DNA from: Ignavibacteriales bacterium
GTDB lineage: Bacteria; Bacteroidota; Ignavibacteria; T3Sed10-11
Assembly (NCBI GenBank): GCA_003568415.1
Contig: PWXV01000058.1
Location: 1,952 to 65,951 of the forward strand
DNA length: 64,000 nucleotides
Direction of reading: 5' to 3'
In this document: one piece after another, positions 597 to 6,211 of the stretch
Layout of the letters: the number at the start of each line of letters is the position of its first letter
Position numbering within the stretch: position 1 is the first letter of the stretch
Made by a program: the position numbers and the translations under genes
The notes under the pieces: generated by a model
What the model saw: only the letters and a program-made list of their open reading frames with translations
The model's database searches: none
Told to the model about the DNA's origin: nothing

Positions 597-2477
597 CTAT
601 TTATATTTCGATTTATGACTGAAACGCGTATATACTTTATCAGTAAAGTTCACCGAGTCGGTTGAATAGGGGTCAACACCATTCATCAGAAAGATTTCAT
701 CAATATACAGCGACGCTTCTTTCCAGGACGTCATTTTGTTCAATGTCTCGATAACGATATTATAATATGCCATGTCCCCATTAAATAGTCTCCGTACAAA
801 TCGTTTTCGTTCGTCATCATCAATGAGTAGATCAAGGGGTGGCATCGTTGATGAAGGTCGTCCGGGTTTTTGTTCCTCAGCAGGTTCATCCTCATACGAT
901 TCCTCATCGAGGGATTCTTCATCAAGTGATTCATACTCAGGCGGGGCTTCCTCAAGTGGTTCTTCCTCGAGTGGTTCTTGCTCAGGCTGCTCTTCCTCAG
1001 ACAAGTCTTCCTCAAAAGTTTCTTCCTCAATCGGTGAATCTTCTCGAGGTGGTTCTTCGAAGATCTCATCTTCAAGCGGTTCCTCACCATGAGGTTCTTC
1101 CTGTATCAGTTCATCCTCCTGAATTTCTTCTTCCATCAGCTCATCATCTTGATATTCTTCTCCACGTGGTTCGTCTTCCCGGGGTTTCTCCTCGATAAGT
1201 TCATCCTCGTAAGATTCTTCTTGAATGGCTTCATCATCGATATCATCTTTTTGTTGTTCCTCTGTAGTTTCTTCTTCAGAGCGGGCCGTATCGATGGGTT
1301 GTTTTAGTAAATCAATTTCATCGGACTCTTCCTGATTTTTGCTATCTTCATCCTTTTGAATAGGCCGAAAGTATTCGTCGTCTTCCGATTCCTGCGTCTT
1401 ATCAGCGGTCCCGGACTCGGGTTCAATTTGTTCTTCCAATTCTATATCCAATGTCTCATCTTTCGGCTCTTCTTCGATCGGTTCTTCTATGACGGGTGGT
1501 TGCTCCGATTCACTGCTATCCTCATCATCCGGCGTTTCCCATTCTTTTACATCCTTATAAATATCTTCTTCTTCATGAAGATGTTCAATACTTGGCTCAT
1601 CTTGATATTCAAGATCATTAACGGTTGATTCCTGATCACGTGGTTCATCGAGAGGTGTGTGTGCGGATTTTTGATCAATCTCACTGTCATCTGGTTTGCT
1701 ATCCTCAATTGGTTTCTCAATATCTGTGTCAGGGGAAATGGGTGTTTTGCTGAGATAATCGCGTAAACCATCAAGTGTGACCGTATCTATACCGTCTTTA
1801 TTGAAGCTTGATTCCAGATGCTGTCGAATATTTTCAAATCCCATATCACCAAAGAATAACATAAGAGCCCGCTCGGGAATTGCTTCATCTTTGTCTTCAC
1901 GGCCGTAACTGACAAAATCGGTGAGCGGTTTAAGTAACGCTGTAAAATCATCCGGTGTAGCATCACTAAGTACAAGCCGGTTTATTTTCAGTATAATATC
2001 ATCGAATAATGCACCGTCTATATGCTTTACTTTTCTCTTTTGCAAATAACGAAAGAGAACCTTGGGATAAAAATCGTATGCAGAAAAATACAGAAACCCC
2101 TGTTGTAATTCCGGGACTGTCAGCGATGATGAATTTTGAAAGAAGAATTCTTTCATAGTCCAACGCGGACGACAAAGATAATTAAATTGAAAATGTACCG
2201 CGTCTGTCAGTAGCGATGTAAAGGTATCTTTGTTGATGGTATAATTTGACGGCAGGAGTAAGTCGATCTCGGTTTTAAGTTTTTCAATATCCGGTGCACG
2301 TTCCGAATGAAAACGTTTCGGGCTCCCGTGTTTATCGGCAATGCTTGCACGGAAATACACCTTGATCGAATCGTGAATAGGTGCCGATAGAATAGATCGC
2401 AAACTCACACTGTCGTGTGAGCCAAGGACCTTGTTTTGAACTTTCCGGATGATGTTTTCTGTTTCGTACACAAACAT
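597..2477 (-). CDS. hypothetical protein with a central ~280-aa poly-acidic (E/D/P-rich) low-complexity region
   Basis: 626-aa ORF. Its stop lies 1 nt before the obg ATG. It has a globular-looking N-terminus (~250 aa) and C-terminus (~90 aa) flanking a central run of EEPxEE / DEExxEE quasi-repeats. No recognisable catalytic motif. Confidence 0.6.
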
Positions 2478-2509
2478 AGTATTCTCGTTTTAATTTTTAA
2501 TTTCAATTT

Positions 2510-5500: not shown

Positions 5501-6211
5501 TATAGCTTCGGCACGCATACTTACAGACCGGCTGTCGGTTGCTTGATCGGGAATTTCCGAAATAACTCTCCGGAATACGTCGCCGGCTCTTGAATACTCA
5601 CCGGCATCGAGACGATATTGACCGAACCGCAATCTTGCATCAAGAATTACACCCGAACCACTATGCCGCAGTATGATGCGACGTAAATACTCATCGGATT
5701 TATTCCGGTCGCCTGCTTTTTCAAAATAAGTACTTGCTTTAAACAGCGCATCTGGTACGATCTCATGGTCGGGATGAAATTGAAAAAGACGCTCAAGCGC
5801 AAGGCCTGCATCGGGAAACCGTTCCTGGTCGGCATATATAGCGGCGACTTGTACCCACGCATCGGGAGCCCGTGTATGATCGGGGAAGGTTAGCGCAAAT
5901 GTTTGCAATGTCATCCGTGCGTTTTCCTCCTGCCCGAGCTGGCGGTATATCATACCGAGATAATAGCGTGATTCGATACCCTGTGAGGTTTGCGGATGTT
6001 CTTCGATAATAGATCTGAAATGATCCATTGCAAGGCTGTAATTCCCCTCATCGAAGAGTTGCACTGCAAGTACAAAATCATCAATAATTGCAGTATCCCG
6101 GTCTTCAGTTATCACCGTGTCCCGGTCTTCGGTTATCAGAGTGTCAGCCGCATTAGTTGACAGATGAAAAAGGAGGAAGGGAATAACTGCTAAAAATATG
6201 AATACAATACG
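2510..6211 (-). CDS. large tetratricopeptide-repeat (TPR) protein with N-terminal signal/TM segment
   Basis: More than 20 TPR-like 34-aa units (W/LG/Y...A...F...A...P pattern, e.g. YYLGMIYRQLGQEENA, YRLANYHLAAGEES). The likely start is a GTG at 6211 preceded by GGAGAG, giving VQRRIVFIFLAVIPFLLFHLSTNA as a signal/TM. The track's ATG at 6391 is the alternative. Confidence 0.75.
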   Translation of the reverse strand, partial: RIVFIFLAVIPFLLFHLSTNAADTLITEDRDTVITEDRDTAIIDDFVLAVQLFDEGNYSLAMDHFRSIIEEHPQTSQGIESRYYLGMIYRQLGQEENARMTLQTFALTFPDHTRAPDAWVQVAAIYADQERFPDAGLALERLFQFHPDHEIVPDALFKASTYFEKAGDRNKSDEYLRRIILRHSGSGVILDARLRFGQYRLDAGEYSRAGDVFRRVISEIPDQATDSRSVSMRAEAILGLAQSYHNLRVFDRAHEEYKRVMDRYNTTSSYPNALLHRAELHQEQGQHLEAVDLFRRAQRSTEGTADENKLYVARRAMLGIAESYNALGDYSSAATFFDLYARQYASEASRQELITIWQGAARSNEGMRNFYQAIDWWDRIIGIDAPDDKKEEAYIRSAMNRIQAGLYRDAADKLRRYAELYNTPLTAEALFQLGTLAEEHLNDPRKALSVYEELAYRFPESRFIDDALYGQARMQLKIGNDQNAYYIVQEFQERFPGSTLLVDIAELKKELEIYHLQDRDGGFQNITMLMSEMIAGSPRGELAFQLGEIYLNKLKQYPEAARQFETTLSMELPDDKKTQAEYLYAYSLYRMAQRSEDRRSEALAKLSDLSNRPARAPHSETISFYHLDVLRSVAGPAEFINTAEKYIETFPRSDHTLTVRMMLAETLEDIGERTNAVEKYKQIVQQYQNQPAAGDATIRLANYHLAAGEESRAADLFITYMRRYSGSAYIADAMLSAAQLHQTNNRYREAIEIYTQFVRNHYYHNKINEARKELARAYKKDNRNREAVELFEDIIAIHETSYFNPVDVPDAILYDAAIAAHHAGLDGTAIEYFERYIVRDRSSDRAGIASLILGELYRQQGKTQVSDYHFSRASEIITGGIANKDIADLLYLNGRYELAAPHLRAVAEHAGSNDVRKIYHRREIIALLRSNNVDDGRRRIEAFKSNYPDESDIAAEFEFEIAMHRFRTRAYDNAARAFQQFIQEHRRHEKLADAHFYLGRTWEAVGRRTDARNKYEEILQNFSNAEIIPHVHLAYAGLLLRNEQFIDAIDHYRIVSEKASDDDGLMYYAIQNLAQAYEEIGFHEAALELTEEFIERFPNDEAVIDKKIKTGTLYQRTNQYERSISVFQSLTLYADRPLETELRYYTGDSYHMMGNYKRAIREFKTVTEIDPRTTQLDWTATALYMAGQSYEQMDKPNEAIAMYQEIIDRRGIEGQYKAAARREIERVRNTMNE

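Follow-up and report, generated by a model that had tools for sequence, protein, structure and literature searches.

To our knowledge, what the essential and universal GTPase Obg actually does, and with which partners, is poorly defined. In Bacillus subtilis, obg is co-transcribed with a gene located directly upstream that encodes a lineage-specific helical protein, Spo0B, a phosphotransferase of the sporulation phosphorelay of about 190 amino acids (aa) that forms a His-containing four-helix bundle. In Escherichia coli, binding of ObgE to YbiB, in the positively charged DNA groove of the latter, is driven by a C-terminal domain (CTD) that is disordered and highly negative and that competes with DNA (PMC10123104). 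Given this precedent, a functional role of an acidic disordered module near Obg is plausible. Here we analyze a stretch of 64,000 nucleotides (nt) from an Ignavibacteriales bacterium (assembly GCA_003568415.1, contig PWXV01000058.1), referred to as the window and the basis of all coordinates given for it, in which the gene of a 626-aa protein, named X in this study, directly precedes obg. An earlier interpretation of the same DNA, called the sequence-only reading below, had singled out X as a protein with a poly-acidic middle part.

X belongs to a family that conserves its two folded domains and its position next to obg. We propose with moderate confidence that X is lineage-specific, resides in the cytoplasm, is co-expressed with the essential GTPase Obg and most likely acts together with it. 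As far as domain libraries and a literature search show, the family is unannotated and undescribed; the literature on Obg together with Ignavibacteria contained nothing relevant.

Results

X is followed by obg in every locus examined

The gene of X occupies positions 597..2477 on the minus strand of the window (ATG at 2477, stop codon TAG at 599-597), and obg starts with an ATG at 595-593, leaving nucleotide 596 as the sole spacer (TAG-C-ATG), exactly as the sequence-only reading had claimed. The obg gene leaves the window, which holds its 5' part (1..595, minus strand, residues 1-198) covering the Obg fold and the first part of the G domain. This fragment has the architecture of Obg/CgtA, an N-terminal glycine-rich Obg fold (Pfam GTP1_OBG, 2.4e-65, over 1-155 of 155 positions) followed by a P-loop G domain (MMR_HSR1 from residue 162), and it scores 318 bits against the NCBIfam Obg_CgtA model TIGR02729 (cutoff 280) despite being cut at residue 198.

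The distance between X and obg was measured with junctions anchored by hidden Markov models (HMMs), which were readable in 82 loci. In all of them (82/82), X is directly followed by obg in the same orientation. The gap has a median of 32 nt and measures at most 60 nt in 75/82 and at most 5 nt in 20/82 loci, and stop and start codons overlap by 4 nt (ATGA) in 11/82 loci that fall into separate subclades. The pair is also kept in a Melioribacter-like locus and in three distant homologues of 25-29% identity (L083-L085) that lack the upstream tetratricopeptide repeat (TPR) gene beside X, and it is unbroken in loci ranging down to ~20% identity. The window protein shows all features of the family, namely an N-terminal domain with the pattern (H)FxxNYLxRPxxT, a variable linker, a C-terminal domain with the pattern W...VDP(F/Y)S...FT, and obg downstream, and the 82 related loci show the same features. 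A linkage to obg that persists among orthologues was thus found, and it is stronger than could be foreseen from the window.

The other neighbours are less constant. A TPR gene lies upstream of X in 76/82 loci, sdhB is found upstream in 28/62 loci, and a FecCD-family ABC permease gene, often overlapping the end of obg, follows obg in 40/69 loci. The usual neighbours of obg (rplU, rpmA and nadD), noted as missing in the earlier interpretation, were indeed found neither on the visible side of the window nor in the flanks of the related loci.

The function of X might be unrelated to Obg, with its place being kept only because breaking the operon is harmful. X contains no known functional domain according to Pfam, NCBIfam and Protein Data Bank (PDB) profile searches, and synteny is conservative in this lineage, where sdhCAB, TPR, X, obg and FecCD genes often travel together, as expected for such a frozen arrangement. 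However, 5-55% of the loci have lost or replaced the other members of this block, while the X-obg pair is intact throughout, and the stop/start overlaps recur in separate subclades. As the unbroken X-obg pair contrasts with the erosion of every other neighbour, a frozen accident fits poorly, and we regard it as unlikely.

Obg orthologues encoded in these Ignavibacterial loci comprise 330-336 aa and consist of the Obg fold and the G domain only. No C-terminal domain, whether OCT/TGS-like or an acidic tail, was found in the orthologues of L010, L007, L005 and L083, which end ~5-15 residues after the G domain and show no further Pfam domain.

X consists of two folded domains outside any described family

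In the AlphaFold2 (AF2) model of X, residues 1-245 and 545-625 have a predicted local distance difference test score (pLDDT) above 90, while the score of residues 249-542 is below 50; the proposed arrangement of folded termini around a disordered acidic centre is therefore supported by the model. The AF2 model of the window protein agrees with that of a 404-aa homologue. The N-terminal domain (residues 1-245; 1743..2477, minus strand) is predicted to be all-helical and built of helix-loop-helix units with short strands, an arrangement that may correspond to EF-hand-like pairs without calcium-binding loops. It contains a 14-residue motif (residues 94-107; 2157..2198, minus strand; alignment A1) that is the most conserved stretch of the family, with N-Y-L-x-R-P-x-x-T still present in its remotest members. 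The C-terminal domain (residues 545-626; 600..845, minus strand) is predicted with a pLDDT of ~95 as a compact bundle of four to five helices and ~80 aa. It is conserved in alignments A1 and A4, and its conserved positions include F565, D568, W585, V-D-P at 601-603, F611 and T612.

A search with the N-terminal domain returned 11 homologues of 369-429 aa, in which both termini align and the 14-residue motif is invariant. An interrupted reading frame or a non-coding status of X can be rejected, since the termini are conserved across many homologues, far beyond chance; the assumption of an uninterrupted, genuine coding gene was correct.

X matches no described protein family. Searches against Pfam and NCBIfam returned nothing, the sole Pfam line (VirJ, E = 0.17) being noise, a PDB sequence profile search gave nothing below E = 0.06, and Foldseek against the PDB gave nothing below E = 0.37. 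The statement that the termini cannot be assigned to any known family therefore holds. Neither a signal peptide nor a transmembrane segment was detected in X (maximum KD19 = 0.97).

Two candidate identities of the N-terminal domain were rejected. A canonical calcium-binding EF-hand is contradicted by the lack of any HMM match, as no Pfam EF-hand family was found at E ≤ 1, and by the PS00018 pattern of the 12-residue calcium loop, which has no match in X and a single one among 199 family proteins. Likewise, X does not qualify as a DCN1 PONY domain, a double EF-hand-like domain of ~200 aa, as significant similarity in sequence or fold is lacking. The nearest known counterparts are EF-hand and EF-hand-like helical domains such as those of calmodulin/CaBP, EFCAB9 and DCN1. 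We read the N-terminal domain as a putative EF-hand-like fold of the peptide-clamp type without calcium chemistry, outside any described family.

The acidic linker is variable and expanded in the lineage of the window

The two domains of X are separated by a disordered acidic linker of 294 aa (residues 248-541; 855..1736, minus strand), delimited by pLDDT below 50 and composition. It contains 31% Glu, 14% Asp and 10% Pro and carries a net charge of -110. The description of this part as almost entirely Glu, Asp and Pro was overstated, as these residues together account for 54%, though the tract is still extreme. Its DNA contains degenerate, GAA-rich tandem repeats (898..1164, minus strand; Tandem Repeats Finder, 67-85% matches), consisting of 15-nt units repeated 2.3 times (898-932) and 7.7 times (915-1030) and of 30-nt units repeated 2.4 times (1095-1164), and these encode EEPLE-type quasi-repeats. 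EEPxEE quasi-repeats, which the sequence-only reading had assigned to the whole tract, are present but limited to its last ~130 residues.

Across the family, the linker was compared in 163 representatives that have both domains. Its length ranges from 18 to 686 aa (median 99) and its net charge from 0 to -146 (median -14), and it is positive in 0/163 representatives, while the folded domains are near neutral. Length and net charge are correlated with r = -0.91, such that longer linkers are proportionally more negative. The linker sequence cannot be aligned across the family, and conservation is limited to the clade of the window, where two short islands stand out. Island 1 (residues 327-338, 12 residues; 1464..1499, minus strand; alignments A1 and A4) follows the pattern PPVIEEP[FIY]EEEP, which is found in 17/163 representatives and is conserved only within this soda-lake clade. 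Island 2 (DDEYFRPIQ, residues 366-374; 1356..1382, minus strand; alignment A4) follows the pattern DDE[LIY]FRPI[QE], which is found in 15/163 representatives and is conserved only in the clade of the window; in the AF2 model it coincides with a slight rise in pLDDT (blocks of residues 361-380 at 50-53 versus ~40 in the flanks) and a three-residue helix. Docking of the islands to either folded domain was looked for in the AF2 model of full-length X and not seen.

Linkers of at least 250 aa occur in 5 of 18 subfamilies, of which 4 also hold members with short linkers, the fifth being a two-member group without such members. The presence of long and short linkers within the same subfamilies points to repeated independent expansions as the origin of the long acidic tracts. 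Within the population, no variation in length was seen: the 626-aa length was the same on all 19 contigs, where a single substitution separates two sequence variants; besides the contigs with the exact window protein, 17 carry the one-substitution variant, also of 626 aa. Strain-level repeat instability, which had been raised as a possibility, was therefore rejected. To judge from these comparisons, the poly-acidic middle part is a putative lineage-specific expansion of a floppy linker and not a conserved core.

Alternatively, the polyanionic tract could be the functional heart of X, which would then be a mimic of nucleic acid or a polycation and sequester ribosomal proteins, polyamines, DNA- or RNA-binding proteins or the basic N-terminal domain of Obg. 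The high charge of the window tract, a linker that is never positive in the family, the basic N-terminal part of Obg (pI 9.9), and the precedent of the acidic ObgE CTD in the DNA groove of YbiB (PMC10123104) are all consistent with this proposal, which goes back to the sequence-only reading. However, many family members have linkers of only 18-60 aa with a net charge of 0 to -10, and such short, nearly neutral linkers contradict mimicry as a core function. In addition, the linker sequence is not conserved outside the clade and long tracts arose repeatedly. The clear targets of selection are, instead, the two folded domains. As judged from the family comparison, polyanion mimicry cannot be the conserved function of X and would be at most a clade-specific add-on; overall, we consider this explanation very improbable.

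Two further observations concern the linker region. In six loci (L017, L048, L066, L072, L076 and L078), X is split into separate open reading frames (ORFs) for the N- and C-terminal domains with the break within the linker, which may reflect frameshift errors in low-complexity sequence or a real gene fission. On the opposite strand of the acidic tract, two ORFs of 106 and 119 aa (772-1092 and 839-1198, plus strand) are Ser-rich and Leu/Pro-rich; they are by-products of the GAA-rich repeats and no genes.

The upstream TPR gene and the extent of the transcription unit

The TPR gene, X and obg all lie on the minus strand, and an A/T-rich spacer of 32 nt (2478..2509, minus strand) separates the TPR stop codon, which ends at 2510, from the start of X, in line with the distance given by the sequence-only reading. 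The longest TPR ORF comprises 1293 aa (ATG at 6391), but the likely start is a GTG at 6220 that is preceded by GGAGAG, resulting in a protein of 1236 aa (2510..6220, minus strand); the same gene was called at 1236 aa in assembly GCA_003561255.1 (L087). The earlier estimate of 1230 aa with a start at 6211 was therefore about right. From the GTG, the protein begins with a cleavable signal peptide (MQRRIVFIFLAVIPFLLFHLSTNA, cleaved before AD) without a lipobox Cys.

The TPR protein matches Pfam TPR_6 (4e-57) and contains about 11 repeat units of the YbgF/TPR_6 type. It passes TIGR02795 with 289 bits (cutoff 90) only by summing 11 repeat stretches. It thus shares TPR_6/YbgF-type repeats and an export signal with the periplasmic TPR proteins YbgF/CpoB and BamD. 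CpoB, however, has ~260 aa with a coiled coil and one TPR domain, and orthology to CpoB was rejected given 82 bits against NF008068 (cutoff 383) and a length of 1236 aa. The equivalog models of CpoB, BamD, LapB and PorW all scored the protein far below cutoff.

An intrinsic terminator is located 3' of sdhB (6401..6453, minus strand), where a nested hairpin is followed by a run of seven U. The predicted hairpin has a folding energy of -26.7 kcal/mol (z = -6.1), and 0/200 shuffled sequences were equally stable. This terminator was overlooked by a simple terminator scan because its loop exceeds 8 nt. A terminator scan gave nothing in the spacer 2478-2509, and no terminator was found between TPR, X and obg. 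The sdhB terminator marks the upstream edge of the putative TPR-X-obg transcription unit. With a strong terminator after sdhB and none found within TPR-X-obg, these three genes look like a single transcription unit, apart from sdhCAB, as far as the window sequence indicates.

The frequent association with the TPR gene raises the possibility that X and the exported TPR protein act together in the envelope or in cell division and that obg is merely co-transcribed. The TPR gene lies directly upstream of X in most loci at a median gap of 34 nt, its repeats are of the YbgF/CpoB/BamD type, and E. coli ObgE itself has been tied to lipopolysaccharide synthesis (PMC11549432). In contrast, L083-L085 lack a TPR gene beside X and the region upstream of X gave no TPR match in L057 and L073, yet all these loci retain obg. 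Moreover, the interval between TPR and X reaches 743 nt and admits inserted genes in some loci, and the two proteins belong to different compartments, as only the TPR protein carries a signal peptide and X lacks a transmembrane segment as well. Although often found next to X, the TPR gene is dispensable there, and we regard a joint envelope function as quite unlikely.

Side observations at this junction include a 120-aa PF05635 gene (23S rRNA intervening-sequence protein family) between TPR and X in L001 (7564-7926), an insertion of one freshwater lineage that is also present in L002, L003 and L019. In L065 (5350-7266), a C-terminal TPR segment is fused in frame to X in a single ORF, possibly as a natural fusion and possibly through an error of assembly or a frameshift. 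Downstream of obg, examples of the FecCD gene are found in L004 (10329-11333), L001 (10241-11239), L083 (10034-11035) and L084 (7471-8478). It was not seen in the closest relatives of the window, in which glutamate dehydrogenase and nusB genes follow obg.

Extent of the family and habitat of the window clade

A profile search of 1.84 billion cluster representatives gave 2185 matches at E ≤ 1e-3, of which 1265 were at E ≤ 1e-10 and 382 at E ≤ 1e-30. A scan of one genome per species yielded 73 loci, mostly labelled Ignavibacteria, Ignavibacteriales, Ignavibacteriota or generic Bacteroidota/Bacteroidetes; three are labelled 'uncultured Chitinophagales' and two only 'bacterium'. In a homologue search with 25 divergent N-terminal domains, the most divergent subgroup carried Melioribacter and Melioribacteraceae names. 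So far, the family is known only from Ignavibacteria-type genomes.

A protein identical to X of the window is present in NCBI (P0012). The closest relatives are metagenome-assembled genomes (MAGs) named CSSed and T3Sed, names used for datasets of moderate-salinity soda-lake sediments (PMC6146748). The 294-aa tract of the window belongs to this soda-lake clade. The window further holds a cluster for the uptake of compatible solutes (52491-59336, plus strand), in which the genes of an OpuA-type ABC ATPase with CBS domains, a permease and an OpuAC binding protein are joined by those of two BCCT betaine/choline transporters. The proteome of the window is moderately acidic with a median pI of 5.4. 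Together, these features fit a saline habitat, and the compatible-solute cluster accords with a salt-out strategy.

Other features of the window

Two sets of succinate dehydrogenase/fumarate reductase genes are arranged in tandem (6490-9895 and 10159-12598, both minus strand). One consists of sdhC-like, sdhA and sdhB genes, and the other encodes a 577-aa flavoprotein and a 234-aa Fe-S subunit without an adjacent cytochrome b gene. An acidic protein of 1132 aa (33074-36472, plus strand; pI 4.6, 20% Asp+Glu) has DUF4175 as its sole Pfam match. No Rfam match was found anywhere in the window.

Discussion

The finding that X is kept beside obg in every locus examined, even at ~20% identity, makes it a strong candidate for a dedicated partner of Obg. 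By its design, we rate X as an accessory protein that is specific to a lineage, belongs to the operon of an essential GTPase and has two modules tethered by an intrinsically disordered region. We infer that X may bind Obg directly. The two proteins would be made from one mRNA in fixed proportion, in the window possibly through termination and reinitiation across TAG-C-ATG. X could then act as an adaptor or regulator of Obg, for instance in late 50S assembly or in Obg stress signalling, with one module holding Obg or a pre-ribosome and the other a second partner. The tether would need only to be flexible and non-basic. It may serve as an entropic spacer that keeps X soluble and off rRNA, and the poly-Glu/Asp tract of the window would represent a slippage-driven expansion of this tether specific to the soda-lake Ignavibacteria.

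As Ignavibacterial Obg has no C-terminal domain, X may, speculatively and by analogy, supply in trans a module similar to the disordered acidic CTD of ObgE. A further-reaching version of this proposal, which we advance tentatively and consider doubtful, is that X represents the first known case of a new class of cofactors dedicated to Obg. In this version, X would be a bipartite adaptor with one module on the CTD-less Obg and the other on a second target, such as a pre-50S particle, a SpoT-like enzyme or a DNA- or RNA-binding protein. The tether would tune reach and electrostatics, thereby giving in trans what others build into the variable C-terminal domain of Obg.

Several points weigh against a joint function of X and Obg as outlined here. 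Constant as it is, the adjacency of X and obg can result from co-regulation alone. A short, CTD-less Obg without any X is found in many bacteria, so that a CTD provided in trans is not required, and the very frequent TPR neighbour leaves room for an envelope-related role. The taxonomy of the family rests on MAG labels, and the 2185 profile matches carry no taxonomy. Finally, the charge of the linker did not correlate significantly with the acidity of the proteome encoded at the respective locus (Spearman 0.21, p = 0.11, each locus contributing few proteins), which leaves the habitat of the clade as the sole basis for a link between linker expansion and salinity, a link that is thus only suggestive.

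If the adjacency reflects co-regulation only, what remains is a lineage-specific family that lacks annotation and merits an entry in Pfam. If X is a partner of Obg, the pair offers a handle for pull-downs and structural studies, for which Ignavibacterium album and Melioribacter roseus are available as cultured species. In addition, the family represents a natural experiment on disordered linkers, with two conserved domains connected by 18-686 residues whose net charge is never positive.

In comparison with known systems, X resembles ObgE in having a polyanionic disordered segment tied to Obg that is poorly conserved and variable between lineages. However, the ObgE CTD comprises ~50 aa and is part of Obg in cis, whereas the tract of X extends over 294 aa, is located between two folded domains and belongs to a separate protein; unlike the ObgE CTD, its length and charge are dispensable across the X family. 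A parallel in gene arrangement is provided by spo0B-obg. X shares neither sequence or fold similarity nor a comparable known chemistry with Spo0B, but spo0B-obg and X-obg both hint at a lineage-specific functional coupling to Obg.

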